From positions 1 to 63,268 of the forward strand of contig JBNLBP010000001.1 in assembly GCA_050302495.1 (NCBI GenBank): a stretch of 63,268 nt of DNA, read 5' to 3'. Numbering within the stretch: position 1 is the stretch's first letter; each line of letters begins with the position of its first letter. The translations under genes were made by a program, and so were the position numbers. Source of the DNA: Candidatus Pacearchaeota archaeon. GTDB lineage: Archaea > Nanobdellota > Nanobdellia > Pacearchaeales > GW2011-AR1. Below, one piece after another: positions 1 to 58,452 of this stretch. The notes under the pieces were generated by a model. The model did no database searches and was not told where the DNA came from. It saw nothing but the letters and a program-made list of their open reading frames with translations.

Positions 1-537
1 GAAATAGAAGTTCAGACTTCATTAGGATATGATGACGGAAAGGCGGTTTGTTCTTTCAGTGATACTGGTCAGGAAGGAACATTTATTGGATTCTTCTATG
101 GGCAAGGAGTTGAACCATACACTCAATATATGCACACCCAATCATTAAATTTAGAAGAAGGAGATTATACTTATTACATAAGATGTTCAGATTTGGGTGG
201 AAATGTTGATGAAACAACAATAAGCTTTAGTGTTGAAACTGATTTGAATCCTCCTGAGATAGTGAGGGTTTTCAAAGACCAAGGAAATCTAAAGGTTATA
301 ACTAGTGAAGAAGGAAGATGTGTTTATTCTGACTTTGGTTGTGCTTATGACTTTGATCAAGATGGAACATATATGAGCACTTTGTCCGGAGGAGATGATG
401 CAGAACATTATGCTAGCTGGCCTGAAAATGCCAAGACTACTTATTACATAAAATGTCAAGACTCTTATGGAAATAGACCTCAATCTAACCAGTGTAGTTT
501 AGTTGTAAGACCTTTTGATATACCTGATGTAAGGTAA
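1..537 (+). CDS. C-terminal part of a secreted Cys-rich repeat protein (5' end outside window)
   Basis: Frame 1 is open from nt 1 with no stop before 537; internal repeat TYYIRCSDxGGN / TYYIKCQDSYGN; many Cys; no TM. Confidence 0.5.
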   Translation, partial: EIEVQTSLGYDDGKAVCSFSDTGQEGTFIGFFYGQGVEPYTQYMHTQSLNLEEGDYTYYIRCSDLGGNVDETTISFSVETDLNPPEIVRVFKDQGNLKVITSEEGRCVYSDFGCAYDFDQDGTYMSTLSGGDDAEHYASWPENAKTTYYIKCQDSYGNRPQSNQCSLVVRPFDIPDVR

Positions 538-582
538 TTTCTTAGAGAATAGTTTTATAAAATATATTTGTTATTTTATTAA

Positions 583-1020
583 ATGAAAAGGGTTGATAAG
601 AAAGGGCAATTGAATATTTCTTTTGGTATGATTTTTTCAATTATTCTTGTAGTGGTTTTTCTTGCCTTTGCTTTCTTTGGAATAAAAAAGGTATTATCTA
701 TTCAAGAGACCGCATTGATTTCACAGTTTAAACAAGATGTACAAAACGATATAAATAAAATGTGGAACGGTCCTCAAGGGCAACAACAAGTCAAATATAA
801 ACTCCCAAATAAAATTGAAGGTATTTGTATTGAAGATGAAGCCTCACAGAATTTTTATTTTGTTCCTAGAGGAAAATTTGGAGGAGGGATATTGAATAAT
901 GTTGATTTGGCCAATACTTTAGGGAATAGTGCAAGCCTTTGTATAGAAAGTAAAGAAGGTTATGTGGGCTTCACAATAAAGAAAGATTTTGGAGAAAATT
1001 TGGTAACAATTTTAAGATGA
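583..1020 (+). CDS. archaeal type IV pilin-like protein (class III signal peptide)
   Basis: N-terminus MKRVDKKG|QLNISFGMIFSIILVVV: basic patch, then KG-Q, then hydrophobic helix (DUF361-like prepilin signal); overlaps next gene by 4 nt. Confidence 0.6.
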   Translation: MKRVDKKGQLNISFGMIFSIILVVVFLAFAFFGIKKVLSIQETALISQFKQDVQNDINKMWNGPQGQQQVKYKLPNKIEGICIEDEASQNFYFVPRGKFGGGILNNVDLANTLGNSASLCIESKEGYVGFTIKKDFGENLVTILR

Positions 1021-1976
1021 GAAGCTTAAACAAAAAAGGGGCCTTGGATATGTCTTTCGGATGGATATTTGCAATAATTGCTGGAGGAATAATACTTTCT
1101 TTAGCAATATATGGTGTTGTGAAGTTTACCGATATACAAAAAACTCAACAAAGTGCTGAGACAAGTAAAAATATCGATAGTTTATTGAATCCATTAGAGT
1201 CTAGTTTTGAGACGGGACAAAAAGTAACCATTACTGCACCTGTAGAAACAAGAATTTATGTTAAGTGTAATACAGATGGAGGTTTAGGATCTCAAAGAAT
1301 TCAGACTGCACAGAAAACATTTAATCAATGGTCGGATAACGGCCCAAGCATTTTATCAAAAGATAAATATATATTCGTTGAAAGTCCTGCAGAAGCCGAA
1401 GGATTTACTATATTTTCTAAATCATTCTCATTCCCTACCGATGAATCCTATGAATTTCCATTTAAAGTTGCAGACTTAATCTATTTGATACCAAATACAA
1501 AGACGTATTGTTTCTTGGATTCTCCTCAAGATATTGAAAGTGAGATAAATGATTTGAATATCGATAATGTTAAAACTGAAAATTGTAATTCTGGAGACAT
1601 AAGAGTTTGTTTTGGAAGTTCGGGTGATTGTGATATTGAAGTAGGCTATAGTCAAGGGATAGTTGAGAAGCAATCTAAAAGAGTTTATTTTGAAAGTGAT
1701 GCTCTTATGTATGGTGCAATATTCTCCGATGAAGCGAATTATGAATGTCAGTTAGAAAGATTAATTGGAAGGGCAGAAGATTTATCAAAAATATATCAGG
1801 AAAAGAGTAGAATTGAAAGAGAATTTGGGTGTGATGGTGATTTGGAAAGTGATTTAATTATATTTGAAAACTTGTTGGAGAGTTTTTCAAGTTCAAGAGA
1901 TATTATTGGTATAGGAAATCAGGCAAAGGTATTGAATAAATTAAATTCAAGGTTGGGGGATTGTAAATTATGGTAA
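1017..1976 (+). CDS. archaeal type IV pilin-like protein (class III signal peptide)
   Basis: N-terminus MRSLNKKG|ALDMSFGWIFAIIAGGIIL; Cys-rich extracellular part; translational overlap with flanking genes. Confidence 0.6.
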   Translation: MRSLNKKGALDMSFGWIFAIIAGGIILSLAIYGVVKFTDIQKTQQSAETSKNIDSLLNPLESSFETGQKVTITAPVETRIYVKCNTDGGLGSQRIQTAQKTFNQWSDNGPSILSKDKYIFVESPAEAEGFTIFSKSFSFPTDESYEFPFKVADLIYLIPNTKTYCFLDSPQDIESEINDLNIDNVKTENCNSGDIRVCFGSSGDCDIEVGYSQGIVEKQSKRVYFESDALMYGAIFSDEANYECQLERLIGRAEDLSKIYQEKSRIEREFGCDGDLESDLIIFENLLESFSSSRDIIGIGNQAKVLNKLNSRLGDCKLW

Positions 1977-2491
1977 ACAATAAAGGCCAAATAAAGATCC
2001 AGCAGATGGTTTTTATGATCATTGCTGTGTTCATTTTATTTGTTATAATAGGGGTAATTGTTTTATCTGGAAGAATCTCTAAATTGCAGAATACCGCTGA
2101 AGAAGCCCAGGAATTAAATGCATTGACTCTTGCTTCAAAGATTGCAAATTCTCCTGAGTTTTCTTGTGGGAACAGTTATGGTAACCAGATAAGTGATTGT
2201 GTGGATTTGGACAAAGTAATGGCTCTAAAGGGCTATATTGAGGAATATGAAGACTTCTGGGGGGTGTCTAATATAGAAATAAGAAAAATATATCCTTCTG
2301 AAAAAGAGGTAGAGTGCGATTATACCAACTATCCAGACTGTAATTGGATAAACTTGTTTGATAAAGAGGTTTCGGGGTATTCTGTGAGTAATTATGTTTC
2401 TATTTGTAATAAGAGATTAAATGGCCAGATTGCTTCAAATAATTGTGATTTGGGTAGAATAATTATAAGTTATGAGGGGGTTGAATTATGA
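1970..2491 (+). CDS. archaeal type IV pilin-like protein (class III signal peptide)
   Basis: N-terminus MVNNKG|QIKIQQMVFMIIAVFILFVI; overlapping stop/start with neighbours. Confidence 0.55.
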   Translation: MVNNKGQIKIQQMVFMIIAVFILFVIIGVIVLSGRISKLQNTAEEAQELNALTLASKIANSPEFSCGNSYGNQISDCVDLDKVMALKGYIEEYEDFWGVSNIEIRKIYPSEKEVECDYTNYPDCNWINLFDKEVSGYSVSNYVSICNKRLNGQIASNNCDLGRIIISYEGVEL

Positions 2492-2979
2492 GGAAATTTA
2501 TTAGTAAGAAGGCACAAGAGGAAATAATGGGTTTTGGTATAATACTTTTGTTAATTGCAGTGATAGGGATTGTGTTTTTGAGCATATCAATAAACAAGAA
2601 CGCTCAGAAGCAACAGTTGGAAGATTATGAAATATCTAGCTTTCTTAAAGCAATGATGGAAACTAGTACCAGTTGCGAGAAGAATACAAAGTATTTGTCC
2701 ATAAAGGATATAGCATTTGAATGTCAGAGAAATTATCTTTGTTACGATGGTGATGATTCGTGTGATGTGTTTAATAATACAGTCAAGGAAATAATGAGTG
2801 AAAGTTGGGATGTAGGTGTGAACAACTCAATAAAAGGCTATAATTTGCTAATACAATCGGAAGATGAAACGTTATTGAATATAAGTTCAGGTAGTTCAAC
2901 TTCTTCATATAAGGGGGCTTCTCAAAATTATGCAAAATCTCTTGATGAGATTAATGTTTTCTTAAAAGTATATACTTAA
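2488..2979 (+). CDS. archaeal type IV pilin-like protein (class III signal peptide)
   Basis: N-terminus MRKFISKKA|QEEIMGFGIILLLIAVIGIV; fourth member of the overlapping operon. Confidence 0.5.
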   Translation: MRKFISKKAQEEIMGFGIILLLIAVIGIVFLSISINKNAQKQQLEDYEISSFLKAMMETSTSCEKNTKYLSIKDIAFECQRNYLCYDGDDSCDVFNNTVKEIMSESWDVGVNNSIKGYNLLIQSEDETLLNISSGSSTSSYKGASQNYAKSLDEINVFLKVYT

Positions 2980-3326
2980 ACTTTGAAATGTACAGTTATT
3001 TGATCTGCTATGAGGAAAGGTTTGTGTCTTGTTCGACCGTTTATTACTTCTTCTTTAAATCCAATAAATCCAAATCTTTCAAGTATTTCTAGGTCTCGAG
3101 TTACGGATTTAAAGGTTCTACCTAATTTCTTAGCTAAATCGTAAATTGAGGTAGGATTTCTGGCTTTTATGGTGTGAATAATACGTGCCTTTTCATTACT
3201 CAATAATTGCCTTAGAGCAGAAATTCCAGAGAAATCGTAGTTTGTTTTATCTGGTTGGCTTTTTAGAAGTGAGAAAACCCCTTTGGATTCTTCAATTGTT
3301 ACTTCTCTTATCTTTCTCGTCGGCAT
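2976..3326 (-). CDS. winged helix-turn-helix transcriptional regulator
   Basis: 116 aa; segment IYDLAKKLGRTFKSVTRDLEILERFGFIGF resembles the HTH plus wing of small archaeal regulators; convergent with the pilin operon. Confidence 0.5.
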   Translation of the reverse strand: MPTRKIREVTIEESKGVFSLLKSQPDKTNYDFSGISALRQLLSNEKARIIHTIKARNPTSIYDLAKKLGRTFKSVTRDLEILERFGFIGFKEEVINGRTRHKPFLIADQITVHFKV

Positions 3327-3692: not shown

Positions 3693-6080
3693 ATGAAAAA
3701 ATTTAATTTTAAAAAAATAACTGCGCTTGCAGGTAGTTTGCTTATGGCAGGTGCTACAATGGGATTAGCTGCTGCAGCTAGTTACCCTGCTCCATTCGTA
3801 AGTGGAAGCAGCGCTAATGTTGCTATCGTTTACGGTACTGGGACTGGAGTTTCATCTCTAGACCTTATACAAGCAGGTAACTTACAAGCTGATTTACAAG
3901 CTTACTTGGGTACTGACTCTACAAACAGTGGATCAACAGTAACTGGAGGAGACTCATATAAATTTGAGAAGACTTCAACAAAGTTCCACTTAGGAGACAA
4001 CATAACTCAAGTTATCTCATCTAGTGTTGATGATGACGAGTTGCCAACTCTTCTTGCAGATGGAAAATACGTCGACAATGATAACGACGAATTTGACTAC
4101 ACTCAGAAGATTGACATCGGAGCAAACTTACAGCTAGGAATGTTCGAAGATAACGACTACGCTGAAGACCAACCTACAATTGGGTTCAGAGTTGCTTCTG
4201 GTACAGCTGTTCTAACATATACGTTAGATTTCAGTGATGAACCTGTTATCGGAGATCTTCCAACATCTGACTTGCCTATAATGGGTAAAAGCTACTACGT
4301 ATTGTCAAATAGTACAAGTGGAAGTAATATCATTTTAACTTTGTTAGATTCTGCTGATTCAACAATCTTGACAGAAGGAGAATCTGCGACTGTTGATGGT
4401 AAAGAAGTTGTTATAACTTACATAAGTTCTACAGAAGTTAAGTTACAAGTAGATGGACAAACTACAAACAGCTTGGCTGAAGGACAGACTCAAAAATTAA
4501 CTGATGGGTCATATGTAGGTGTAAAGGATATCTTGTACGACGCAAAAGATACTGGTGTTTCAAAAGTTGAATTCAGTATTGGTACAGGAAAATTAACTCT
4601 TACTAGCGGTTCAGATATACAAATGAACGATGAGTCAGTTTCTGGAATTAATGTAACTATTACAAATAGTACAGATAGCTTAAGTGATATTAAAATATCA
4701 TGGCTTGCAGATGATGATTTATTCATCACTGAAGATTCAGAAATTGAGATGCCTGGATTTGAAGCTGTTAAATTATCTTTCGGAGGATTAACTTATCCTT
4801 CTGAGGAGACTGTAACAATTCAACAAGGTGGAGACACTTATGCAGTTTTAGATAACTTCCCTCTTAAGGATGGTGAAGCAGATATAAATCTTTTATACGG
4901 AGCTTCTGGAGCATTTACAGGACTCGGTAAAGATGCTAACAATAAGTTAGTTACTGCTGCTACAGGAAGTACATTTACTTTCGACGGGGACACTGATGAC
5001 TATTTCGTTGCTTCATGGAGTGATGGTAGTGATGGTGAATCTTACCTTATGAGAGCTACAAACTTTGTAGTTGATGGTAGTGATAATAAGACTACTTTCC
5101 AATATTACAAAGATGGTTCTTGGGTGGATACTAAGACTGGAGCTAAAGAAGGAGACACTTTCTCATTAGGAAGTGTTGAAATTGTGGTAGATGTTGTTAA
5201 CAAAACAGATAAAACTGTTTTATTAGGAAACAATAGTGCTAACACAAACTTCAATACGCTTTACTCAAAGACTGGTTTGAAAGTTTTCTTACCTTATGAG
5301 GCAACAAACGCAACAATCGTTACTGGTGCTCCAGGTTCAATTAACTTTACTGCTGTTACAACAGGAGTTGGAGGAGATTTGGGTCTAGGACACAACGCTA
5401 CTTCATTCTATTTAACAATGGTTGAAGAAGACAAAGACGATAACGTTGCTAGCGGAGATACAATCAACGCTACAATTGGTTGGGACAGTTCTACAACTCA
5501 AGAAGTTGAAGTAAGTACCTATACTACTACAAACACTGACGCTACAAAGACTGAAATTGGAGATACAGACGTGTGGAGAGATTTCACATACTCTGCTCTT
5601 GCTACTGAGATATTAAGTAACGAGCCAAGTTCAGGTCAGAAGAGTTTGAAAGTAGTTTACCATGGCGGAGAAGTATCTGCTGATGTTTACATAACATCAC
5701 CGGACGCTACTGTTACAACAACAACTACAGGAGCTGGTTCTCTTGGAGATGTTCTTGTTAAAGATACAGAAGTAAGCTCAGTTTCTACTAAGAACTTGAT
5801 AGTAGTTGGAGGAAGTTGTATTAACTCAGCTGCTGCTTCACTAGTTGGAGGAGCATACTGTGGTGCAATGTTCACAGAACAAACAGGAGTAGGATCAGGA
5901 CAATTTGTAATAAAAGGATATTCTGATTCAACAATAACTAGTAAAATGGCTTTGCTTGTTGCTGGTTATGAAGCTGCTGATACTGTAAACGCTGCAACAT
6001 ACTTGAGAACACAAAAACCTGATACAAGCCAAGCTTGGGTCGGAACATCTTCTTCAAGTGCTACACTTCAGGTTGCGTAA
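3693..6080 (+). CDS. S-layer / major surface (glyco)protein candidate
   Basis: ATG at 3693 preceded by GGAGGT (3681-3686); signal peptide MKKFNFKKITALAGSLLMAGATMGLAAAAS; 795 aa Thr/Ser/Asp-rich with many N-x-S/T sequons; codon usage visibly GC-richer than surrounding genes (high expression); oligo-T terminator downstream. Confidence 0.55.
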   Translation: MKKFNFKKITALAGSLLMAGATMGLAAAASYPAPFVSGSSANVAIVYGTGTGVSSLDLIQAGNLQADLQAYLGTDSTNSGSTVTGGDSYKFEKTSTKFHLGDNITQVISSSVDDDELPTLLADGKYVDNDNDEFDYTQKIDIGANLQLGMFEDNDYAEDQPTIGFRVASGTAVLTYTLDFSDEPVIGDLPTSDLPIMGKSYYVLSNSTSGSNIILTLLDSADSTILTEGESATVDGKEVVITYISSTEVKLQVDGQTTNSLAEGQTQKLTDGSYVGVKDILYDAKDTGVSKVEFSIGTGKLTLTSGSDIQMNDESVSGINVTITNSTDSLSDIKISWLADDDLFITEDSEIEMPGFEAVKLSFGGLTYPSEETVTIQQGGDTYAVLDNFPLKDGEADINLLYGASGAFTGLGKDANNKLVTAATGSTFTFDGDTDDYFVASWSDGSDGESYLMRATNFVVDGSDNKTTFQYYKDGSWVDTKTGAKEGDTFSLGSVEIVVDVVNKTDKTVLLGNNSANTNFNTLYSKTGLKVFLPYEATNATIVTGAPGSINFTAVTTGVGGDLGLGHNATSFYLTMVEEDKDDNVASGDTINATIGWDSSTTQEVEVSTYTTTNTDATKTEIGDTDVWRDFTYSALATEILSNEPSSGQKSLKVVYHGGEVSADVYITSPDATVTTTTTGAGSLGDVLVKDTEVSSVSTKNLIVVGGSCINSAAASLVGGAYCGAMFTEQTGVGSGQFVIKGYSDSTITSKMALLVAGYEAADTVNAATYLRTQKPDTSQAWVGTSSSSATLQVA

Positions 6081-6204: not shown

Positions 6205-6783
6205 ATGAGAAAAATAACTTCTAGAAGAAATGAAATGAGAAAACAGAAGAGGAACGGTACGATCTTAGTTGTTTTCCTTATAGTCGTGTTGTTTGGTAGT
6301 GTTTTTGGAGTTATAGTTAATTCTTTTGGATCTCAAGAAGCAGAAGGAAATTTGAAGTATAAAGGCCATACCTTCTTATACAACAACGGTTTTTGGACTG
6401 TAAAGGATATATCTAATGCGGTATTCACTTATAATCCTCAAGAGACTGAATCAGTAATTCTTGATAGGAAAAATATTGTTTCTGACCTTAGCAAATATTC
6501 TGGAGTTCCCGTTTATATTTATTCGGAAGATTCTGCTTCAGAGCTAGAAATTTATAGGAATTTATTTTACGTATCTGAAAGAATACAAAATGCGTGCCCT
6601 TTAGATAAAGAATGTTCTGAGGATATTCCAACAAAAGACTGCACAAGCAACTTTGTTATAATAGAGGTTTCAAACCAAAGTGAGATATATGAAGACCAAA
6701 ATTGTGTTTATATAAAAGGGCAAAAAGAAAACTTAATAAAGATAAGTGACGAATTCTTATTTAGTTTATATGGAATAAATTAA
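6205..6783 (+). CDS. hypothetical membrane-anchored protein
   Basis: Basic N-terminus plus one TM (ILVVFLIVVLFGSVFGVIV), Cys-containing ectodomain; TATA-like TTTTATAC ~25 nt upstream (possibly leaderless). Confidence 0.5.
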   Translation: MRKITSRRNEMRKQKRNGTILVVFLIVVLFGSVFGVIVNSFGSQEAEGNLKYKGHTFLYNNGFWTVKDISNAVFTYNPQETESVILDRKNIVSDLSKYSGVPVYIYSEDSASELEIYRNLFYVSERIQNACPLDKECSEDIPTKDCTSNFVIIEVSNQSEIYEDQNCVYIKGQKENLIKISDEFLFSLYGIN

Positions 6784-6784
6784 C

Positions 6785-7483
6785 ATGGCAAAGAAAACAA
6801 AGAAGAGCAATAAGAAATCTGTTAAAGAGGTCTTTGAAGTTGAGGATAAAAAGACAGGAGAATCAAAACAGATAGTTAAGAATTCTAAAGAACCTTCCGA
6901 ACATTCAGATAAAAAAGAAATTAAGAGAAATGAAAAACAACTTAAAGTAATACTAATCGTTCTTGGGGCATTAATTGTCTTCTTTTTTATAGTTTTCTTT
7001 GGATTAAACGGCATAAGGAATGCAAAATATGAAAATACTGAGTTTCAGACAGTTCAGGAAGGCCAACTTATATTCTATCAAACTTCAATACCAGTGATTT
7101 ATCAAGGAGCGGTAGTTCCATACAATTTCTACTTGAGAACTCACCCAAGAGATTTGAAGAAGATACCTTTCGAAGGTACGTTGGAACTTAAGAAGGGGTA
7201 TGCTCTTAATGTTACTCAGGACTTTAATTGTTACGGAGATGGGGTTATTGCTTTAGCTAATCTTGTTAAACAGAGAGATGTTATGGGAGTTACTACAATA
7301 AGTGGGGAAGTTGGGTGTGATGCTCAAAGTAGATATAATTATTATGAGATAATCGAGGGAGATGAAACAAAGATAGTTCAGAGAGGAGATACATCTTGTT
7401 ATGATCTTTACGTGAGCGACTGTGAAATTCTTCCGGTAACCGAAAAACTTATGGCAGAGACTTTTGTTAAGTTTAATGAATAA
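6785..7483 (+). CDS. hypothetical membrane-anchored protein with lysine-rich N-terminus
   Basis: KK-rich N-terminal 60 aa, one TM (VILIVLGALIVFFFIVFFGL), Cys-containing C-terminal domain; 1-nt spacing to upstream gene. Confidence 0.5.
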   Translation: MAKKTKKSNKKSVKEVFEVEDKKTGESKQIVKNSKEPSEHSDKKEIKRNEKQLKVILIVLGALIVFFFIVFFGLNGIRNAKYENTEFQTVQEGQLIFYQTSIPVIYQGAVVPYNFYLRTHPRDLKKIPFEGTLELKKGYALNVTQDFNCYGDGVIALANLVKQRDVMGVTTISGEVGCDAQSRYNYYEIIEGDETKIVQRGDTSCYDLYVSDCEILPVTEKLMAETFVKFNE

Positions 7484-8020
7484 TTATTTTATGTTCTTAA
7501 ATAAGAATTTTATATCTGAGTAGAAAGGTATTCCTTTTATCTTATATTTATTTACTTGATAGAACCAAATCAATATTACAAGAACTATGCTGCCAAAATA
7601 CCATAAGAATTTGTGTAGAATATCTGCAACGGGAGAGGTATTTAGGAAAAGAACACCTATTACAAATATTCTAATTATATTGAAAACCAAGAAGATTAAG
7701 AAAGACAATAAAAGGAGTTTTATTCTCTTAGGGAATTTCAATCCAGGAGTGGATAAATTAAGCATCAATAGTAAAAAATAAGCTGATCCAGCTATGCATG
7801 CCCCAATAATCTCTAGGGAAATAGGAAAACCTCTGAAATTTATTATATTTACAGGCGTTACATAAATGTCATAGAAGATATTGAATAAAAAATAAGTAGG
7901 ATATTTTGTAAGGGGTTCAAAGATGAAATAAAGGATAGATAGCCCAGATATTGCTATTATTAATAGAACTGCATATCTTATTACTAAATCAGTAAACCTC
8001 TTTTTGTTTGACTTATTCAT
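7484..8020 (-). CDS. small polytopic membrane protein, possible exosortase/archaeosortase-family protein
   Basis: 178 aa, ~4 TM; Cys in GACIAGS followed ~45 aa later by N-x-x-R (FNIIRIF) inside TM segments, resembling the Cys/Arg core of exosortase/archaeosortase; lies downstream of an adhesin gene with a C-terminal sorting-signal-like tail. Confidence 0.35.
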   Translation of the reverse strand: MNKSNKKRFTDLVIRYAVLLIIAISGLSILYFIFEPLTKYPTYFLFNIFYDIYVTPVNIINFRGFPISLEIIGACIAGSAYFLLLMLNLSTPGLKFPKRIKLLLLSFLIFLVFNIIRIFVIGVLFLNTSPVADILHKFLWYFGSIVLVILIWFYQVNKYKIKGIPFYSDIKFLFKNIK

Positions 8021-8050
8021 AGGTTATTTAGATAAATATAATTTAAAAGA

Positions 8051-8494
8051 TTATAGCTTTATTTCAAGATCTTTGTAATACTCTTCTGGAGACAAAGCCT
8101 CATTGCCATTAATCCCATCCATTTCTGGATCGAATAACAACAATAAATCATCTTTTGGAGGGTCTTGTTTTCCATATTTGTTGAAGATATAAATTATCGG
8201 GAATTGTGATCGAGTTACGCTATCACCTCTTATCTTGAGGGGTGTAAATTCAACAACATCAAATATTGAATCCTTCGGGGAATCTAGGTCATAATAATCC
8301 ACCCTCATAAGATTGCTACCGCTGTTACCAAAATAGTAACCGCTAGAATAATCTGGAACAGGGTTTCTTTTCTGATAACCCTTAAACTTTCCAGGGAGAA
8401 AATCCTGTGAATTAGAATTTGAAGAAAGGGCAAAAAAGGCTAAAGGCAAAATTAATTTAGATAGGCTTTTCATAATAGAATTACTTTCTTGCAA
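8051..8494 (-). CDS. secreted hypothetical protein
   Basis: Signal peptide MKSLSKLILPLAFFALSSNSNS; 14-nt overlap with upstream adhesin gene (operon). Confidence 0.5.
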   Translation of the reverse strand: MQESNSIMKSLSKLILPLAFFALSSNSNSQDFLPGKFKGYQKRNPVPDYSSGYYFGNSGSNLMRVDYYDLDSPKDSIFDVVEFTPLKIRGDSVTRSQFPIIYIFNKYGKQDPPKDDLLLLFDPEMDGINGNEALSPEEYYKDLEIKL

Positions 8495-10061
8495 CTCTTA
8501 CTGCAATTATAATTATAACTATTACAAGGATTAAATTAAGTAATCCAATTCCCCATAAGTGCCAGTTTGATCCACTTATTGCGAATCCAGTTATCAAAGA
8601 TTTCTTTGATACTTCAACAGATACAGGTTGATTTGCAATTAAAGCTCCACTTGAGATAACTTCTATGTTGAATATTTCTTCTCCGAAAGCATCAGATTTA
8701 ACGTCAAGAGTTATCAAAACATCTTCTGATTCTCCAGCGTCAAGAGTCAAAGTAGTCTTAGTTAAGTCAGCTCCATCAGCCCAAGATCCGTAACCTGCAA
8801 CGTTTAAAGTATAAGTAGTAGTTTTTTCTCCTGAATTGATTAATGTAGCTTTAACAGTTAAAGGTTTTCCAGCTTGTCCTCCATCTTGAAGAACTGCGTG
8901 TACTTCAGCATCAGTAGAACTCGAACACTCACCAGAAATTGTTACAGATTGTGAAAATGTAGATAACTCGTCATCATGGTCTGCTTCGTATATGTCTCCG
9001 TCTTCGTCAAGTACAGAGAACTTAAAGTTGTAAGTTCCTGAAGCATCTTCTGGAATTGGAATAGTTAAACTGAATGATTCTGAATTTAAAGCATCAATAT
9101 CTCCAACTGAAACATATTTTTCAATTCCAAGTCTTGATTCAACAACTTTAACTTCTATATCATCTTGGTCTCTGTCTCCAATATTCCAAACGTCTCCTGA
9201 AATAATCATATCAGAACCACATTGAAGATTTTCTGGTAATTTAAGGTCATCTAATACAGCAAAATCTCTTTCAATAATTATATCAACTGATTCAGAAGTG
9301 AAATCACAAGTATTTGGTTTTGAATCAATATCTACTTCACCTGTTGCTCTTGCATATAATTCGTAAGATCCATCTTCAAGATCTTCAAGGTCAATATCTA
9401 AATCATGATCATCAAGTGTGAAGCTGATTGTAACTGTCTCATCATCTCCATCCTTTATTTTAAAGCTATCAACATCATCTATTTCAATAATCCATTCATT
9501 GCTTGAGCTGTCGTAAATACCCCATTCAAGTTCAACATCTCTCAAGTCTTCATCTCCATTGTTTTCGATTCTAACTTCAATTTCTATTTGGTCTAGAGGG
9601 AACCATTCTTCATCGTCACCGATACCTTCTTTTATTTGAATATCTCTTATTTCTATGTCTAAATCTCCCCCATAGTTCTCATATTTACACAAATTAGTGT
9701 TTTGTGCAGTAACTGAGTAAGATAGAGTTTCAGATCCTGATTGAGTTATATCAAATGTAGAAGTGTAAGATTTAAGGAAATCAAAATCTCTTAAATTAAC
9801 TTGAGGAGTAACTGTCAAAACAGTTTCATTGTTAGAGTCAAGTGTTGTATTTCCTGAAACGGCAAAAGTAACCCCATTAATAGTAAAATCACTGTAAGAG
9901 ATATCACTTGAAATATTTGAACTAACAGTAATAGTTTGTGAGTTATTGTTATTAAAGGTTAATGAGGAAGGGCTTACACCTAAAGTTGCACTAGTAAATC
10001 CAGCTAAAAGCAATAATGCAAACATGCTTACAAACACTAAAACTAAATTTTTGTTTTTCAT
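8481..10061 (-). CDS. acidic surface adhesin-like protein (CARDB-like repeats) with C-terminal TM anchor / sorting-signal-like tail
   Basis: Signal peptide MKNKNLVLVFVSMFALLLLAGFTSA; Asp/Glu-rich beta-repeat regions; C-terminus TGFAISGSNWHLWGIGLLNLILVIVIIIIAVRVARK is a short motif + TM helix + basic tail, the tripartite layout of PGF-CTERM-type archaeosortase signals. Confidence 0.55.
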   Translation of the reverse strand: MKNKNLVLVFVSMFALLLLAGFTSATLGVSPSSLTFNNNNSQTITVSSNISSDISYSDFTINGVTFAVSGNTTLDSNNETVLTVTPQVNLRDFDFLKSYTSTFDITQSGSETLSYSVTAQNTNLCKYENYGGDLDIEIRDIQIKEGIGDDEEWFPLDQIEIEVRIENNGDEDLRDVELEWGIYDSSSNEWIIEIDDVDSFKIKDGDDETVTISFTLDDHDLDIDLEDLEDGSYELYARATGEVDIDSKPNTCDFTSESVDIIIERDFAVLDDLKLPENLQCGSDMIISGDVWNIGDRDQDDIEVKVVESRLGIEKYVSVGDIDALNSESFSLTIPIPEDASGTYNFKFSVLDEDGDIYEADHDDELSTFSQSVTISGECSSSTDAEVHAVLQDGGQAGKPLTVKATLINSGEKTTTYTLNVAGYGSWADGADLTKTTLTLDAGESEDVLITLDVKSDAFGEEIFNIEVISSGALIANQPVSVEVSKKSLITGFAISGSNWHLWGIGLLNLILVIVIIIIAVRVARK

Positions 10062-25203: not shown

Positions 25204-25632
25204 ATGAAAAGAGGGACTAGAATAACTTTAATCGTTTTGGGAGTTATAATCTTTCTTGGGATAATCTGGGGATCAATAATCCTTGTAACTACAAACGATA
25301 AAGAATCAGAAACCCCACAAACTCTTGCCGAAAGAGCAATAGAGCAGAATAACGGTTCAATTTGTAATGAAGCTGGAGGCACATATAGAAGCGGGAGGGT
25401 GGATGATTGTCGATTAGAATTTTATATCGCGAAAGGAGATTTACAAGGTTGTGGCAATCTTTATTATCTTGGAGATGAGAAGATTTGCTATGGCAAAATA
25501 ACTCTCAAAGAAGGGGTTGAAAGATGTGAAGAATTGTCTGATGAATATTACAAAGAAATTTGCTATAAGGGATATGAATGTTACCAAATTGGAGAGGGGC
25601 CTGAGAGGTCTGATTGTATTAACCTTGTTTGA
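25204..25632 (+). CDS. membrane-anchored Cys-rich extracellular protein
   Basis: N-terminal TM ITLIVLGVIIFLGIIWGSIILV; 12 Cys in a 110-aa ectodomain. Confidence 0.45.
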   Translation: MKRGTRITLIVLGVIIFLGIIWGSIILVTTNDKESETPQTLAERAIEQNNGSICNEAGGTYRSGRVDDCRLEFYIAKGDLQGCGNLYYLGDEKICYGKITLKEGVERCEELSDEYYKEICYKGYECYQIGEGPERSDCINLV

Positions 25633-49796: not shown

Positions 49797-50783
49797 ATGG
49801 AACCCTTAATTGCAATAACAATTTTTGCGAGTTTTTTTTGCTCATTTTTGATAACACCCCTTTGGATAAGGAAAGCCAAGTCTTTAGGGTTAACAGGTAA
49901 AGATATTCACAAGAAAAAATCTGAAGAGGTAGCAGAAGGGGGAGGAGTAGGTATCTTGTTTGGATTTACAATAGGCGTTTTACTTTATGTTGCAATAAAT
50001 ACGTTCTACTTTAACAATACTACCAAACTTACAGAAATATTTGCTTTACTTTGTGTTATATTCATAGGGTCAATTGTAGGAATAGTTGATGATTTGACTG
50101 GATGGAAAAAGGGGTTGAGTAGGAAGATAAGAATTGCGATAGTTGTATTTGCTGCAATTCCTTTAATGGTTATAAACGCGGGGGAATCTTCTATACTTGG
50201 AATAAATCTGGGCATATTCTTCCCATTGATAGTTATACCTCTTGGGATTGTTGGGGCGACAACAGTTTACAACACTCTAGCTGGATACAATGGTCTTGAA
50301 ACTTCGCAAGGTATGCTTTTACTTGGAGCTTTGGCTTATATTACATACATTACGGGAAACCCTTGGTTAAGTGTTGTTGCATTGTGTATGGTTGCTGCTC
50401 TTCTTGCATTCTACTTTTTCAATATGAATCCTGCTAAAATCTTCCCAGGAGATATTACAACATACTCAATTGGGGCTCTATTTGGGGGGATTGCTATAAT
50501 TGGAAATGTAGAAAAAATAGCTTTGTTCTTTTTCATACCCTATATATTTGAGATCATATTAAAGATCAGAGGTAAATTGGAAAAGGAGAGTTTTGGTAAA
50601 TTAAACCAAGATGGAGAAAGTCTTGATTTGAGGTATAATAAGATATATGGTCTTGAACATCTTGCTATAAAAATATTAAAGAAAGTCAAGAAATCTGGAA
50701 AAGCATACGAAAACGAAGTGGTCTGGTTGATAAATGGTTTCCAATTATTAATAATTATTCTTGGACTTTTGATATTCTTTTAA
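49797..50783 (+). CDS. aglH: UDP-GlcNAc:dolichyl-phosphate GlcNAc-1-phosphate transferase (AglH/GPT, MraY-WecA family)
   Basis: 328 aa polytopic; VGIVDDL (DDxxD) and NGLE motifs of polyprenyl-phosphate sugar-1-P transferases. Confidence 0.75.
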   Translation: MEPLIAITIFASFFCSFLITPLWIRKAKSLGLTGKDIHKKKSEEVAEGGGVGILFGFTIGVLLYVAINTFYFNNTTKLTEIFALLCVIFIGSIVGIVDDLTGWKKGLSRKIRIAIVVFAAIPLMVINAGESSILGINLGIFFPLIVIPLGIVGATTVYNTLAGYNGLETSQGMLLLGALAYITYITGNPWLSVVALCMVAALLAFYFFNMNPAKIFPGDITTYSIGALFGGIAIIGNVEKIALFFFIPYIFEIILKIRGKLEKESFGKLNQDGESLDLRYNKIYGLEHLAIKILKKVKKSGKAYENEVVWLINGFQLLIIILGLLIFF

Positions 50784-50820
50784 TAAAAAAGGTTTTAAAT
50801 GATCATTATTTATCAAGAAG

Positions 50821-53562
50821 ATGAGTGATAAAGAATTTTCCCTAAATGTTAAGGAAATTAAGAGTAGTTACAAAAAATCTAAGCATTTCTTTATGGACAA
50901 AAGAGTACAATTAATCCTTACTGCAGTTATTTTTCTTATTATACTAATATCTGCTTCTGTAATAAGAACCTCCAATTTGGACAATCTTAAAGACATGACT
51001 ACCGGAAACTATTCTGCAGCAGATCCAGATGCTCTTTATTTCCTAAGGCTGTCCCACGTTGTTCTTGACCAAGGAAATTTAAATGGTGTTGATGCTTTAA
51101 GGGCTCCAGGTTTAAACATACCTTATCTTAAGGAGATTGCCCCTTACACAATTGTTGGAATTTACAAAATAGCTAGTGTGTTTAGCCAGGGGGCAGATCT
51201 TAACTTCATTGCGGTAATTTCGCCAGTAATATTCTTCATTTTGGGACTAATTGTCTTTTTCTTTCTCTGTTATTATTTAACAAAATCAAAACTTGTTGCT
51301 TTACTTTCTTCCGCATTTTTAGCATTTTCACCTGCATATTTGTTTAGAACTATGTCTGGAGTTTTAGATCACGATTCTATAGGTATGTTGGGAATATTTG
51401 CGACACTACTCGTTTTTGCTGTAGGCTCTAAGAGATATAATAAATCAAAAAATAAAACTTTGTTGTGGGGAGGAATTTTGGGCCTATCAACAGCATTCGC
51501 ATTGGGAGCATGGGCAGGAGGGGTTACATTCTTGTTTATGATTATACCTCTTGCAATAATTGTTAATTACTTGTTTAACCTTGAAGGGAAAAAGGAGGAA
51601 AAAGAGAAACTAATTTTATTCAATATAACTTGGCTTGTTTCATATGTAATCTTCACTAGAATCATTGGATTTGCTATGTCTGATATACTTAATCGGTTGA
51701 CAAATCCTTCAAGTATGTTGGTATTACTCGTCTTAGGTTTTATCGTGGTGGATTATCTTGTTGAAAGAAACATGAAGAAGTTGAAAATGATTAAAGAAGA
51801 AAATAGGGTTGCTTATTCTATTGTTGCAGCAATAATTTTGGGAATCTTATTATTGACTTTGACGGGAAACAATTTCTTCTCTATGGTCTCTCAAATATAT
51901 TATAAAATCTTGAATCCTTTCGGTTACGGAGGAAGATTAGGTTCCACCGTTTCAGAAAATGCCCAACCGTATCTAACCTCTTGGATAAGCCAAATAGGAA
52001 AGGGTCTGTTCGCTTTATTCTTTGCAGGAATGGTTCTTATGGGGTTTGATTTTTCTAAGAAGATCGGCTCTAAAAAACACCGTATTTATTTTGTTGCGTT
52101 TTGGATAATCCTTATATCAGGGATATTATTTAGTAGAATCTCTCAAGGCCATATACTAAACGGAGAAAATTTCATAAGTCAAATATTTTACATTGGAGGA
52201 TTTTTATTATTCCTTATTTATTTCGTAAGACTATATTTCAAAAACAGATTTGAGATAGACAAAGACATGATCTTGGTTTTCTCTTGGATGTTATTCATGT
52301 TAGTTCTTAGTAGGGCTGCTGCAAGAACAATATTTGTTGCAACACCCTTTGCATGTTTCGCTGCAAGCTATTTGCTTGTTGGGTTGGGAAAGAGATTGAG
52401 AAAACCTAGAGAAGATACGATGAAAATGATTCTTTGGTTAATTTTCATAATAGGAGTTATACTTGCATTCGTTTCTTTATTTGGAAACCCTTTAACTCAG
52501 TCTCCAGGTACGTATCAAATACTTAAGAATCAGGCGTCAGGCATCGGTCAAGCAGCAAATTATCAATGGCAATACGCAATGGAGTGGGCAAGAGATAATA
52601 CTGGAGAAGGAGATATTTTTGTACACTGGTGGGATTATGGGTATCTCGTCCAAACCCTAGCAAATAGAAAGACCGTTAGTGATGGAGGTCATGCTGCAGG
52701 AGATTCAGGAGACCATAATGTAGGGAGATACATCTTAACAACCCCTAACCCTATTACTGCCTTGAGCTATATGAAGACTTGGAATGTTTCCTATTTGATA
52801 ATTGATCCAACAGATCTTGGAAAATATGGAGCATATTCAAAGATTGGAAGTGATAAGGATTATGATAGATACTCAGCTCCATTTGCTTTAGCAAAAGAAG
52901 ATAGTCAAACTGTTGAAACTTCTTCAGGAAACAAATTTGTTTACCAAGGAAGTAGTTTTGTTGACGGAGATATCAGCTATCAAGATATATTCATCCCTGG
53001 ACCAAGCTTTACAGAATCAGGACAAGCAACTGCGAACGCATACATTATAGGATTACTTTTAGAAACCTCCGATGTGTCGGAAGGAAGAACCGAGATAAAA
53101 CAACCCCAAGCAGTATTCTACTATAAAGATAAACAATATCAAATTCCCATAAGATATGTGTATTATCAAGGAAGGATTATGGATTTCCAATCAGGTATAG
53201 AATCAACATTCGTTTTGATTCCTAAAGTAAATGAAGACTCTTTAGGGTCAATAGGCATTGATTATACAGGGGCAGGAATGTATTTATCAGAAAAAGTCTC
53301 CGATAGTCTATTTGCAAACCTTTATTTGATGGATGATCCATTCAATAAATACCCTACAATCACTCTTGCAAATTCTGAAGATGATTACGTTGTTAATGCT
53401 TTGAAACAACAGGGTGCAGAGGTTGGGGACTTTGTATATTATGGTGGTTTCAGAGGTCCTTTAAAAATTTGGAAAGTAGAATACCCTCAAGGAACTGAAA
53501 CACATGATGAATTCTTGCAGTTGACTTCTAATTGGGAAGGAGAATTAGATAAATTATTTTGA
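50821..53562 (+). CDS. aglB: archaeal oligosaccharyltransferase AglB (STT3 family)
   Basis: 913 aa; 13-TM N-terminal domain, WWDYGY motif (IFVHWWDYGYLV), large C-terminal soluble domain. Confidence 0.9.
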   Translation: MSDKEFSLNVKEIKSSYKKSKHFFMDKRVQLILTAVIFLIILISASVIRTSNLDNLKDMTTGNYSAADPDALYFLRLSHVVLDQGNLNGVDALRAPGLNIPYLKEIAPYTIVGIYKIASVFSQGADLNFIAVISPVIFFILGLIVFFFLCYYLTKSKLVALLSSAFLAFSPAYLFRTMSGVLDHDSIGMLGIFATLLVFAVGSKRYNKSKNKTLLWGGILGLSTAFALGAWAGGVTFLFMIIPLAIIVNYLFNLEGKKEEKEKLILFNITWLVSYVIFTRIIGFAMSDILNRLTNPSSMLVLLVLGFIVVDYLVERNMKKLKMIKEENRVAYSIVAAIILGILLLTLTGNNFFSMVSQIYYKILNPFGYGGRLGSTVSENAQPYLTSWISQIGKGLFALFFAGMVLMGFDFSKKIGSKKHRIYFVAFWIILISGILFSRISQGHILNGENFISQIFYIGGFLLFLIYFVRLYFKNRFEIDKDMILVFSWMLFMLVLSRAAARTIFVATPFACFAASYLLVGLGKRLRKPREDTMKMILWLIFIIGVILAFVSLFGNPLTQSPGTYQILKNQASGIGQAANYQWQYAMEWARDNTGEGDIFVHWWDYGYLVQTLANRKTVSDGGHAAGDSGDHNVGRYILTTPNPITALSYMKTWNVSYLIIDPTDLGKYGAYSKIGSDKDYDRYSAPFALAKEDSQTVETSSGNKFVYQGSSFVDGDISYQDIFIPGPSFTESGQATANAYIIGLLLETSDVSEGRTEIKQPQAVFYYKDKQYQIPIRYVYYQGRIMDFQSGIESTFVLIPKVNEDSLGSIGIDYTGAGMYLSEKVSDSLFANLYLMDDPFNKYPTITLANSEDDYVVNALKQQGAEVGDFVYYGGFRGPLKIWKVEYPQGTETHDEFLQLTSNWEGELDKLF

Positions 53563-54368
53563 GAACAATGGATGGCAAAATTAAGAATAGCTTGAAAGAG
53601 AACTATGTCAAAAGAATAGCTAATAGAGTGATGAACACGCTTTATATCTACCCTTTCTTCAAACTAAAGGGTCCTTTGAAAGGCCATACGGCAAAAATAA
53701 TTAATTTGCATTACATAGAGAGGGCTCCAGAAACTCAAGTTGCGGAAATAATTGAGAGTAAAGTAAACCTCGGAGACAAGGTAATTGATGTGGGAACACA
53801 TTTTGGATACTATACCTTACTCATGGCAAAGAAGGTTGGATCGGAAGGAAAAGTCATATGTTTTGAGCCTTCTAAAGAGACAAGAAATATTCTTAGGAAC
53901 AATATTAAGAAAAATAAATACCAAGATAGAACAATAATTGAGAGCAAAGGCGTTTCCAATGAAAGAAAAACTCTCCCATTTAGCGTTAGGAAATTTAGTC
54001 CAATGAATACTTTTACGATTGAGGAATATGGAAATGTCAAAAAAATTGAATGTATTGATTTAGACACTTATTGTAAAGAGAAGGATATTACCCCTTCTTT
54101 CCTAAAGATTGATGTAGAGGGTGTGGAAAAAGAAGTTATTGAAGGTATGAAGAAGCTAATAAGAATAAGTAAACCAAAGGTTCTCCTTGAAGCTTCAAAA
54201 GAAACAGAAGGTATGGAAGAAATATTTGATATGTTTATTAAAAATGGATACAAAGTTTACACTTGGAGAACAAGGGTTGATGAGGACTCTTGGAAAGATC
54301 TGGTTGAAATAAAAAGGCCAGGAGAAGTGATTACAAAACACATCTACTTCGAGTATCCTCTTTTCTAG
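53559..54368 (+). CDS. FkbM-family methyltransferase
   Basis: VIDVGTHFGYYT (SAM-binding) and FLKIDVEGVE motifs; 4-nt overlap with aglB; TAG stop. Confidence 0.7.
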   Translation: MRTMDGKIKNSLKENYVKRIANRVMNTLYIYPFFKLKGPLKGHTAKIINLHYIERAPETQVAEIIESKVNLGDKVIDVGTHFGYYTLLMAKKVGSEGKVICFEPSKETRNILRNNIKKNKYQDRTIIESKGVSNERKTLPFSVRKFSPMNTFTIEEYGNVKKIECIDLDTYCKEKDITPSFLKIDVEGVEKEVIEGMKKLIRISKPKVLLEASKETEGMEEIFDMFIKNGYKVYTWRTRVDEDSWKDLVEIKRPGEVITKHIYFEYPLF

Positions 54369-55471
54369 TTTATCGCTTTAGAATATATTTCTCTTAGAAT
54401 TTCATTTCTTTTTTCTATGGAAAATTTCTCTTTTGATTCTTTTATAGCATTCTTAGACATTTTATTAAGTAGTTTTTTATTCTTTATTAGCAATGAAGTT
54501 TTCTCAACAAGATTACTTATGAACGTTTCATCCATTTCAGCATACCCTTTCCAATTTTTAGGAAGATCTATTAGAAAACCTGTTTTCCCTTCAGAAACCA
54601 ATTCTGATTTTGCAAAACTATTTGTTGTTATTACAGGTAATCCGTACGCCAATGCTTCTGGAACTGCAAAACCATAAGAATCTCCAAACCCGGGGTAAAA
54701 GAATATATCTGAAGAAGGATAAATTTCTTTGAATAACTTCTCTTGAGGAATAAGGTCCATTATTTTTATCTGTTTGTTTTTAGAATACTTATCTTTAAAC
54801 TCCTTTGGAATCGGACAGAGAAATATAAATTCAACATTCTTATGATTTTTTGATAAACGATCAAAGACCTCCAAAGTTTGACGGCCCCCTTTTGCATCAA
54901 ACCACCTTGCAACGAATAAAACTCTTGTTTTTTTGTGAGGTATTTTCTTAAAATTAACGGGAGGTGTTGCGAAAGGCACAATAGCCATTTTGTCTAAGAT
55001 CTTTCTATTTCTATGGAATGCTTTTTCAAAAGTTTTTTTGCAATCTTCTGACCAAACCAATATTTTCTTACAATATTTACTCTCTAGCCTATTTCTTATT
55101 ATTGCTTTTCCTAAGCCCTTTGTGGCAGTATTTCTACCTGCAGAAGCTAATTGATCATAAACTTCAGTATCTACCACCCATGGTTTCCTATTTAAGCTTA
55201 AACAGTGAGCACAATGAATTAGATCAAAATTTCTTGAGGTAGTAAAGGTTAAGTTAGGCAAGTGGATCAGCCTCAATAATTTCCTTATTCTATTTTTGAA
55301 AACCCTCATAGATTCGAATTTCCTTCCAGATCCAATAATTTCCATTTTCTTTGAATTCTTTTTGTAGTTAACATAACTAATATTTTTTGGAGGAAAATCA
55401 AGAATGTTTTTGTAGTATGAACTATCTGGAAATTTCCATGGATATTGCAGATGAACCTTGATTTCTTTCAT
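54365..55471 (-). CDS. glycosyltransferase family 4 (GT-B, retaining)
   Basis: C-terminal YPGFGDSYGFAVPEALAYGLPVITT...GKTGFLI matches the GT4 E-x7-E region. Confidence 0.8.
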   Translation of the reverse strand: MKEIKVHLQYPWKFPDSSYYKNILDFPPKNISYVNYKKNSKKMEIIGSGRKFESMRVFKNRIRKLLRLIHLPNLTFTTSRNFDLIHCAHCLSLNRKPWVVDTEVYDQLASAGRNTATKGLGKAIIRNRLESKYCKKILVWSEDCKKTFEKAFHRNRKILDKMAIVPFATPPVNFKKIPHKKTRVLFVARWFDAKGGRQTLEVFDRLSKNHKNVEFIFLCPIPKEFKDKYSKNKQIKIMDLIPQEKLFKEIYPSSDIFFYPGFGDSYGFAVPEALAYGLPVITTNSFAKSELVSEGKTGFLIDLPKNWKGYAEMDETFISNLVEKTSLLIKNKKLLNKMSKNAIKESKEKFSIEKRNEILREIYSKAIN

Positions 55472-55523
55472 ATATATTTTGCATACCAGAAGAGTTTATA
55501 AAATTATAACCTTGATAATAAGT

Positions 55524-56717
55524 ATGGTTAAGGAAGTGGACGCGGTTTACGTTGTTGCATCCAAATTGGGAAGTATTGGAATGGGTTCTGCAGCATATAG
55601 TGCTATAAAAGGTATTGATAAATCAAAAGACATATCTTATAGAATTTTCTGTAGAGGATATAATTCTAAAGTTAAAATAAATAAAAAAAATCTTATTTCT
55701 TATGGATATTTAGAATATCTTTCTTACCCTTTTCGTTTTTTGGAGAAAAAACTTAAGATAAAGATTGATTCATTCAAATGGGTAAACTATCTTTTTGGCA
55801 AAAGAATTTATAAAAATCTGCCAAAGTGTAAGATCTACCATACTTGGATGGGGATATCTCCAGAAGCGATAAAAAAGGCAAAAAAGAACGGAGCAATATT
55901 GATTCTAGAAGCGGCAAATTCCCACCCCCTAAATTTCTTAAATCTTATTAATGAAGAATACAAAACTTTTGATTGCGATAAATTCATTTTAGAAACTGAA
56001 AAATTTAAGAAAGATGTGGAATACATAAAATCATTTGACTATATTTCTTGCCCGTCTGATTTCGTTTATAATTCTTTTTTGGAAGAAGGCTTTGCAAAAG
56101 AAAAACTAATAAAGATTAACTATGGGGTTGATGTGGACAAATTTTCTCCTTCTAGAAGAAAGAAAGATAAGAAATTTCGGGTGTTATTTGTGGGATCAAT
56201 ACAAATGAGAAAAGGAATTCCTTATTTACTAAAAGCGTGGGAAGAATTGAATTTAAAAGATTCTGAACTAGTTGTTGTAGGAAGTGTTTATCCTGAAGCT
56301 GTTCAAATTATTAAGAAATATTTAAAAAACCCTTCAATAAAATTCTGCGGTTTTAACCCTGATTTGAGGGAATACTATTCAAATGCGGATGTTTTTGTAT
56401 TTCCTTCTATTGAAGAGGGTTCTGCTTTAGTTAATTATGAGGCTATGGCTTCAGGTTTACCATTAATCACAACATTTAATTCAGGAAGTGTTGCAAGAGA
56501 CGGAAAGGAGGGATTTATTATACCTATAAGAAATACAGAGAAGTTAAAAGAAAAAATAAAATTTATGCATGACAACCCTAAAAAACGTATTCAAATGGGC
56601 AAAAATGCTAGAAAAAGAATCGAAGAATTTACTTGGGACATATACGGAAAGAAGTTATCAAATCTTTATCGAGATCTCCTGAAGAAATCAAAATATACTT
56701 CTCTTACAATTATTTAA
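55524..56717 (+). CDS. glycosyltransferase family 4
   Basis: Start chosen at MVKEVDAVYVV (the 55458 start overlaps the convergent gene); FPSIEEGSALVNYEAMASGLPLITT...GKEGFII GT4 signature. Confidence 0.8.
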   Translation: MVKEVDAVYVVASKLGSIGMGSAAYSAIKGIDKSKDISYRIFCRGYNSKVKINKKNLISYGYLEYLSYPFRFLEKKLKIKIDSFKWVNYLFGKRIYKNLPKCKIYHTWMGISPEAIKKAKKNGAILILEAANSHPLNFLNLINEEYKTFDCDKFILETEKFKKDVEYIKSFDYISCPSDFVYNSFLEEGFAKEKLIKINYGVDVDKFSPSRRKKDKKFRVLFVGSIQMRKGIPYLLKAWEELNLKDSELVVVGSVYPEAVQIIKKYLKNPSIKFCGFNPDLREYYSNADVFVFPSIEEGSALVNYEAMASGLPLITTFNSGSVARDGKEGFIIPIRNTEKLKEKIKFMHDNPKKRIQMGKNARKRIEEFTWDIYGKKLSNLYRDLLKKSKYTSLTII

Positions 56718-56736
56718 GAATAATAATGTTTATTAA

Positions 56737-57759: not shown

Positions 57760-57841
57760 AATCACGAGAATATTTATAAAATAGAAAAAAATTCTAGATG
57801 AATGAGGAATAATTTTATTACATTTTGTAGGAGGTTATTGG

Positions 57842-58426: not shown

Positions 58427-58452
58427 AAAGAAAAACAAAGTTTTAGGAAGGT

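Follow-up and report, generated by a model that had tools for sequence, protein, structure and literature searches.

Bacterial minor-pilin and pseudopilin operons, such as FimU-PilVWXE with PilY1 and GspH-K, pack four to six pilin-like genes tightly together, their products sharing a conserved helix and carrying unrelated heads, and they include a large Sec-secreted partner that is not itself a pilin, while the assembly ATPase is often encoded elsewhere. Among archaea, the Epd pili of Methanococcus maripaludis (EpdA-E; type IV filament (TFF) system 1) are likewise made from several different co-transcribed pilin-like genes accompanied by large adhesin-like proteins. The Epd pilins are cut by EppA at the sites RA↓QI, KG↓QV, KG↓QL and KG↓QI, with Gln being required at position +1 (PMC4371748). 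According to a 2026 preprint, DPANN archaea have system 1 of the Epd type as well as Aap-like and 4A systems, and stand-alone pilin loci are known for system 1 in M. maripaludis. The locus considered here lies in a stretch of 63,268 nucleotides from Candidatus Pacearchaeota archaeon (GTDB lineage Archaea; Nanobdellota; Nanobdellia; Pacearchaeales; GW2011-AR1; GenBank assembly GCA_050302495.1, contig JBNLBP010000001.1, positions 1 to 63,268 of the forward strand), the whole of which is referred to as the window. Four consecutive overlapping genes near its start, P1 to P4, close a conserved operon of seven genes, A-B-C-P1-P2-P3-P4, situated immediately upstream of an S-layer gene. Their products are read here as pilin-like proteins bearing class III (prepilin-type) signals, at a probability of about 0.7.

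The four genes are given below, with an arrow at the predicted cleavage site:

583-1020, plus strand: P1, 145 amino acids; leader MKRVDKKG, then QLNISFGMIFSIIL; site KG↓Q; invariant cysteine pair C82/C120.
1017-1976, plus strand: P2, 319 amino acids; leader MRSLNKKG, then ALDMSFGWIFAII; site KG↓A; eight conserved cysteines.
1970-2491, plus strand: P3, 173 amino acids; leader MVNNKG, then QIKIQQMVFMII; site KG↓Q; six cysteines.
2488-2979, plus strand: P4, 163 amino acids; leader MRKFISKKA, then QEEIMGFGIILLL; site KA↓Q; four cysteines; three N-glycosylation sequons.

The initial annotation had described four genes overlapping by 4-7 nucleotides with class III-like N-termini, and the open reading frames (ORFs), their overlaps (4, 7, and 4 nucleotides), and their N-termini were all verified in the ORF list of the window. 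A hydropathy scan revealed one hydrophobic segment in each protein, N-terminal and with its onset at residue 6-8; the helix spans approximately 22 residues and begins at most 5-6 residues from the [KR][GA] motif. Shine-Dalgarno-like G-rich boxes can be read ahead of P3 and P4. The starts of P2 and P3 were placed by a gene caller, on a Logan contig, at internal Met codons, which drops the basic leader. The long forms are nevertheless considered to be the real ones because the orthologues of both proteins keep the motif ([KR][GA] followed by Gln or another residue) in frame upstream of those internal Met codons. When all six frames of the window were scanned for [KR][GA]x preceding a hydrophobic helix, the single real N-terminus found besides those of P1-P4 was KRG↓T of the ORF at 25204-25632. 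This ORF (plus strand) encodes 142 amino acids, starts MKRG↓TRITLIVLGVIIFLGIIWG, has no family match, and carries Thr in place of Gln.

A basic leader, [KR][GA], usually a Gln, and then a highly conserved hydrophobic helix are found in six of the seven operon products, namely A, C, and P1-P4. The remaining product, B, which is large and Cys-rich, has a clearly different signal, an ordinary one of the Sec type. The consensus N-termini of the six families read:

A: [KR]G↓QVTIFIIIAI
C: KKGG-[IL]A[IL]SQI[IL]ILI (class III-like)
P1: [KR][GA]↓Q.x[IL]SFGMIFSIIL
P2: [KR]G↓x[LM]x[IF]SFxW[LI]FAIIVG
P3: [KR][GA]↓Q[LIM]KIQQxxFML
P4: [KR][AG]↓QEE[MI]xGFxLI

The motif is conserved in frame across some 55-80 orthologues per family. 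Position -1 is Gly or Ala (rarely Ser) in at least 97% of the orthologues of A, P1, P3, and P4, positions -2 and -3 are mostly Lys or Arg, and Gln occupies +1 in every orthologue of A (54/54), P3 (75/75), and P4 (68/68) and in 52 of the 59 of P1. In P2, position +1 is Ala in the window and Ala, Tyr, Phe, Gly, or Gln across the family. Just upstream of an N-terminal membrane helix, [KR][GA]Q was present in 201 of the 357 proteins belonging to the A and P1-P4 families, as against 4 of 338 other ORFs from the same loci, one of these four being a paralogue of gene A. The [GA]Q motif is also absent from X192 and X232, two single-helix proteins encoded nearby. The window sites KG↓QL, KG↓QI, and KA↓Q resemble those of the Epd pilins. 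Cleavage of P1 at the conserved SFG↓M was considered as well and rejected, given that position -2 carries no charge and that P2 does not retain the Gly. The N-termini are thus supported, as judged from their sequences, as behaving like EppA-type class III signals. Recognition of the site by a class III peptidase is proposed because a near-invariant Gly/Ala-Gln ahead of the helix in four to six separate families would be hard to explain otherwise, and the conservation of the helix sequence itself, equally hard to explain otherwise, argues for specific contacts made by the helix.

Conservation peaks in the hydrophobic N-terminus of both P1 (0.79 versus 0.55) and P3 (0.73 versus 0.64). The N-terminal parts of P1 and P2 were found by hhalign to be homologous with 97% probability, whereas no two families have related head domains. 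Going by these alignments, N-termini that align while the heads are unrelated, with the hydrophobic N-terminus most conserved, is the conservation pattern of pilins. The AlphaFold2 model of P1 (predicted local distance difference test score, pLDDT, of 88) comprises a helix at residues 14-62 followed by six strands, and that of P2 (pLDDT 89.8) a helix at residues 14-56, a beta domain, and a helical bundle. In outline, both models are pilin-like “lollipops” with a long N-terminal helix and a beta-containing head. The cysteine counts of P1, P2, P3, and P4 are even (2, 8, 6, and 4), and in the family alignments the cysteines are invariant in P1 and invariant or near-invariant in P2, all of which would be compatible with an extracytoplasmic location. 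Apart from the three in P4, one N-x-S/T sequon is present in P1 at residue 11 (Asn at +3 of the N-terminal segment), and there is none in P2 or P3.

P1-P4 had initially been regarded as a unit of four genes, which has to be enlarged to seven on the strength of comparative gene order. This order was derived from gene neighbourhoods and from ORF and BLAST analysis of 82 genomes, and is fixed as A, B, C, P1, P2, P3, P4, a regulator on the minus strand, the S-layer candidate, X192, and X232, where A is of approximately 260 amino acids, B of 480-790, and C of 590-1060. P1-P2-P3-P4 are contiguous in 61 of 65 testable genomes and A-B-C-P1-P2 in 44 of 48, while the order of P4, the regulator where present, and the S-layer gene is kept in 43 of 44. 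More than 550 homologues of P2, equal in length and approximately 45% identical, were retrieved, and all lack both Pfam domains and informative names. A relative of P2 was present in at least 277 genomes in a one-genome-per-species scan, and the 80 loci returned by the P2 scan are all titled Woesearchaeota, Pacearchaeota, Nanoarchaeota, Nanoarchaeia, or unclassified archaeal metagenome-assembled genomes. A chimeric query of P3 and P4 gave matches covering about half of its length, apparently all of them P3 homologues and all unnamed. No description of the seven-gene operon was found in the literature searched, in which neither the protein families nor the seven-gene architecture nor its constant association with the S-layer gene appears to have been described.

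Variants of the operon were also encountered. In L003-L005 (9049-9999), which represent one marine lineage with contigs of up to 490 kb, an extra gene of 316 amino acids with a lipoprotein-like N-terminus stands between P1 and P2. A C-like giant protein (1120-1290 amino acids) is encoded upstream of the main operon in L020, L028, L041, L043, L059, L062, and L075, preceded by an extra A-like gene in L043 and L075; in L032 and L079 an A-like gene occurs alone. These additional A-like and C-like genes upstream of gene A suggest a partial second copy of the module.

The P1 family extends to 1321 representative clusters at E≤1e-3. Three of the best 150 representatives (P0343, P0395, and P0399, at loci L088-L090) consist of a full P1 module followed by a polysaccharide lyase 14 (PL14) domain, with a GDSL esterase in addition in P0343, which makes such enzyme fusions rare. 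The fused genes are found on other, shorter contigs and in a different context, the contigs being too short to show any machinery. Downstream of the fused gene in L088 lie genes with the canonical archaeal pilin-like N-termini KRG↓ISIIIGYVLLIV and KRG↓LSVIVGYILLIV, and the protein with the latter has a weak match to Pilin_N (0.061). A pilin-type N-terminal module carrying a functional C-terminal domain is likewise the arrangement of modular type IV pilins such as PilB of Streptococcus sanguinis (PMC8179133) and of the class III-signal binding proteins of Sulfolobus. Owing to the PL14 and GDSL fusions, the P1 module is viewed as a carrier for surface enzymes akin to the modular pilins, although the P1 of the window has no added domain.

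Overall, the operon appears to work most like the Epd-type pilins and the bacterial minor-pilin operons that include a PilY1-like partner. It has in common with the Epd system the [KR][GA] motif with an obligatory Gln at +1, the tetrapeptides KGQL and KGQI being identical to the sites of EpdD and EpdE (PMC4371748), as well as the combination of several different pilin-like genes with large adhesin-like proteins; that system 1 is reported in DPANN archaea, with stand-alone pilin loci in M. maripaludis, adds to the likeness. In contrast to the Epd pilins, P1-P4 have no match at E≤1 to PF04021 (Class_IIIsignal/DUF361, with its QxSxE...L motif). The initial annotation, in which the N-termini were taken for signals cleaved by PibD/FlaK/EppA on DUF361-type pilins, is therefore supported as to the EppA-type site (Gly or Ala at -1, Gln at +1) and not supported as to the DUF361 assignment. 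There is also no Glu at +5 here (Ser in P1 and P2, Gln in P3, with P4 having Glu at +2 and +3), the heads, lacking in the major Epd pilin, are here much larger and rich in disulfides, and the operon is fixed beside an S-layer gene with no ATPase, platform protein, or EppA at the locus. As for the bacterial minor-pilin operons, gene B takes the place of the large Sec-secreted partner. They belong to another domain of life, however, with no sequence or fold match, and they have Phe or Met at +1 with Glu at +5 as opposed to the Gln at +1 found here.

A number of results weigh against the identification of P1-P4 as pilins. Pfam and NCBIfam scans of P1-P4, A, B, and C returned no pilin family and no family match, and sequence-profile searches of the PDB found nothing relevant. 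Pilin_N gave no match for P1-P4; neither PF04021 nor PF07790 was among the top 25 of the 68 Pfam families matched at E≤1 by 71 homologues of P1; and the model folds of P1 and P2 showed no significant match to a solved pilin, pseudopilin, or archaellin. The sole link to the DUF361-type family is the JGI label “UPF0333 family” on three P1 homologues. The FlaFind-style pattern attributed to Szabo et al. in 2007 reportedly reads [KRDE][GA][ALIFQMVED][ILMVTAS]x3, and in this strict form it is failed by all four proteins. Polar or charged residues interrupt the stretch from +2 to +4, namely Asn, Asp, and Lys at +3 and the Glu pair at +2/+3 of P4. The orthologues of gene A (RGQVTI) would pass the same pattern.

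The assembly machinery provides a further argument on the negative side. With all large or multi-membrane-helix ORFs of the 63-kb window annotated, no T2SSE-type ATPase, platform protein, or A24 peptidase was found among them; they were identified as an M50 protease, VTT/DedA, an AI-2E transporter, SpoIIM, a family 4 glycosyltransferase (GT4), AglB, a helicase, the sortase, and a thymidine-phosphorylase-family (glycosyl transferase family 3) protein, and the lone Walker A motif in any frame of the window is that of the helicase. In about 80 related genomes, too, the operon has no ATPase, platform protein, or prepilin peptidase within approximately 10 kb, which means that the candidate type IV pilus locus of the initial annotation is not a complete one. 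Given that neither a T2SSE signature in 1.28 Mb of related loci nor, by neighbour-gene clustering, a recurrent ATPase-like neighbour was detected, it seems that the operon never travels with its motor. One preprint, in addition, has DPANN genomes lacking the components of type IV pili. Woesearchaeota, on the other hand, strongly express archaellins (PMC11606122), and class III processing machinery is therefore implied in that group.

With these points given their due, the seven-gene operon is probably a core surface or attachment structure of DPANN archaea. A fuller model, which is held with slightly better than even confidence, envisages a cleaved and heterogeneous set of minor-pilin or pseudopilin-like proteins acting with adhesin-like B and C in a filament-type assembly that passes through or docks onto the S-layer and relies on machinery encoded elsewhere. 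The precursors would insert in the membrane with the N-terminus inside and would be cut after the Gly or Ala by a class III signal peptidase of the EppA/PibD type encoded elsewhere, upon which the mature proteins would join via their N-terminal helices into an assembly like that of type IV filaments. This assembly would most likely resemble a minor-pilin or pseudopilin set with adhesin-like components, that is, a short fibre or the complex at the tip or base of a pilus, a likeness suggested by the six different subunits with unrelated heads and the large Sec-secreted partner. An ATPase and a platform protein, also encoded elsewhere, would build the assembly, which would cross or dock onto the S-layer, and the most plausible role would be surface adhesion or host contact. 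Cleavage, filament formation, function, and host attachment of P1-P4 are all what one may infer from the features above. A bolder version, which is doubtful, would make of the operon a lineage-specific organelle composed of six pilin-like subunits with new head folds and a large Cys-rich partner, genetically tied to the S-layer gene and having no dedicated, and possibly no, TFF ATPase; it could act as an S-layer-integrated stalk or pseudopilus for anchoring or host contact, with the variants displaying PL14 and GDSL enzymes.

The surroundings of P1-P4 in the window comprise the following features:

1-537, plus strand: 3' end of gene C, 178 codons, with the frame open from base 1 and the gene running off the start of the window.
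554-561, plus strand: TATA-like box TTTATAAA, read from the sequence and centred approximately 25 nucleotides upstream of the P1 ATG.
2976-3326, minus strand: winged helix-turn-helix (wHTH) regulator, HVO_A0114/MarR-like (PF25212 match, 5e-16), convergent and overlapping the stop of P4 by 4 nucleotides.
3693-6080, plus strand: S-layer candidate, an 821-amino-acid ORF open from 3615 (S_layer_C match of 2.2e-4, below the curated cut-off).
6205-6783, plus strand: X192, one membrane helix, no family match.
6785-7483, plus strand: X232, one membrane helix, no family match.
7484-8020, minus strand: pacearchaeosortase (NF033505 match, 7.5e-59).
8481-10061, minus strand: PACE-CTERM “putative S-layer protein” containing CARDB (NF033506 match, 1e-123).

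The initial annotation had placed P1-P4 between a Cys-rich secreted protein and an S-layer candidate, with a convergent wHTH regulator. The regulator is borne out by its PF25212 match and occupies the same position in most related genomes, and the S-layer gene is where it was said to be, with a sub-threshold match; the upstream protein corresponds to a truncated gene, of which the window contains only the 3' end. Gene C, orthologues of which are present in L002, L003, L006, and most related loci, encodes in full a large Cys-containing surface protein and shows weak Ig-like matches (Big_13). The box TTTATAAA suggests a candidate internal promoter, from which P1-P4 would be transcribed as a leaderless mRNA separately from A-B-C. 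The S-layer candidate likely starts at ATG 3693, which follows GGAGG and would give the Sec-type signal MKKFNFKKITALAGSLLMAGATMGLAAAA. With a single exception, every locus that reaches far enough has X192 and X232 downstream of the S-layer gene; their helices are preceded by R-N-Q or L-R-N in place of [GA]Q, the K-R-N-Q of X192 being conserved before its helix. The PACE-CTERM protein is likely the substrate of the adjacent pacearchaeosortase, with an ORF of 147 amino acids lacking a family match in between (within 7484-10061, minus strand); the window thus has two different S-layer candidates within 7 kb. Further along, at 49797-60496, the window has an N-glycosylation neighbourhood with a GT4 (AglH-like), an AglB/STT3 of 913 amino acids, an FkbM methyltransferase, two family 1 glycosyltransferases, and two genes resembling sugar epimerases or dehydratases as judged by their N-termini alone. 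FtsZ and glycosyltransferases are also encoded in the window, together with an apparent ribosomal protein cluster, recognised by ORF size, order, and a few N-termini. Taken together, this gene content marks the source as a DPANN archaeon of the Pacearchaeota/Woesearchaeota type.

The main rival to a filament-type assembly is a membrane-anchored envelope complex, in which the N-terminal helices, cleaved or not, would hold together a heteromeric structure in the pseudo-periplasm, with the task of anchoring, spacing, or organising the S-layer and with no TFF ATPase involved. This explanation is possible, if on the unlikely side. It would account well for the coupling of the operon to the S-layer gene in nearly all testable genomes, for an S-layer candidate with no C-terminal membrane anchor (its C-terminus having been read by eye), and for a neighbourhood that X192, X232, and the sortase/PACE-CTERM pair suggest to be one of the cell envelope. 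The missing ATPase and platform protein, both in the window and within approximately 10 kb in related genomes, the heads unlike those of solved pilins, and the preprint statement on type IV pilus parts in DPANN archaea point the same way. A plain anchor, however, leaves unexplained why a near-invariant Gly/Ala-Gln should precede the helix in four families and why the helix sequence itself, for instance SFGMIFSI, should be so strongly conserved, when the neighbouring X192 and X232, which have a single helix too, do without the motif. Even the class III proteins of the Sulfolobus bindosome, which do not form filaments, still depend on a TFF-like assembly system.

Two further explanations dispense with adhesion or with the signal itself. 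A bindosome-like role, whereby class III signals would serve substrate-binding or enzyme-display proteins in nutrient scavenging, is very improbable. Class III signals are known on substrate-binding proteins in Sulfolobales, and three members of the P1 family do carry PL14 domains, one of them with a GDSL esterase as well; yet these fusions are infrequent among the best representatives, P1-P4 of the window have no enzyme or binding-protein domain, and in about 80 genomes neither the operon nor its vicinity encodes an ABC transporter or a solute-binding domain. That the proteins are ordinary Sec-secreted or signal-anchored ones with a meaningless KG/KA-Q motif is scarcely credible, even though the lack of a pilin family match, the failure of the strict FlaFind-style pattern, and the downstream Met starts preferred by one gene caller for P2 and P3 could be cited in its favour. 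The hydrophobic stretch of about 22 residues lies close to the motif, with no small-x-small site seen by eye after it, and the motif itself is kept in frame across the orthologues of each family, with an invariant Gln at +1 in three of the families and a control frequency of only 4 in 338. An ordinary signal peptide is, besides, present in gene B of the same operon and is clearly different. Class III-signal, pilin-like proteins thus remain the favoured identity of P1-P4.

Woesearchaeota and Pacearchaeota, which count among the most widespread of the DPANN archaea, have no cultivated member. A concrete candidate for their attachment or surface apparatus is provided by an operon that lies next to the S-layer gene, recurs in at least 277 genomes at the species level, encodes six pilin-type N-termini, and has no annotated domain. 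It also defines approximately six new protein families, and the structure that these may build can be tested by way of its cleavage site, the helix with the conserved sequence SFGMIFSI, and the variants that carry enzymes.

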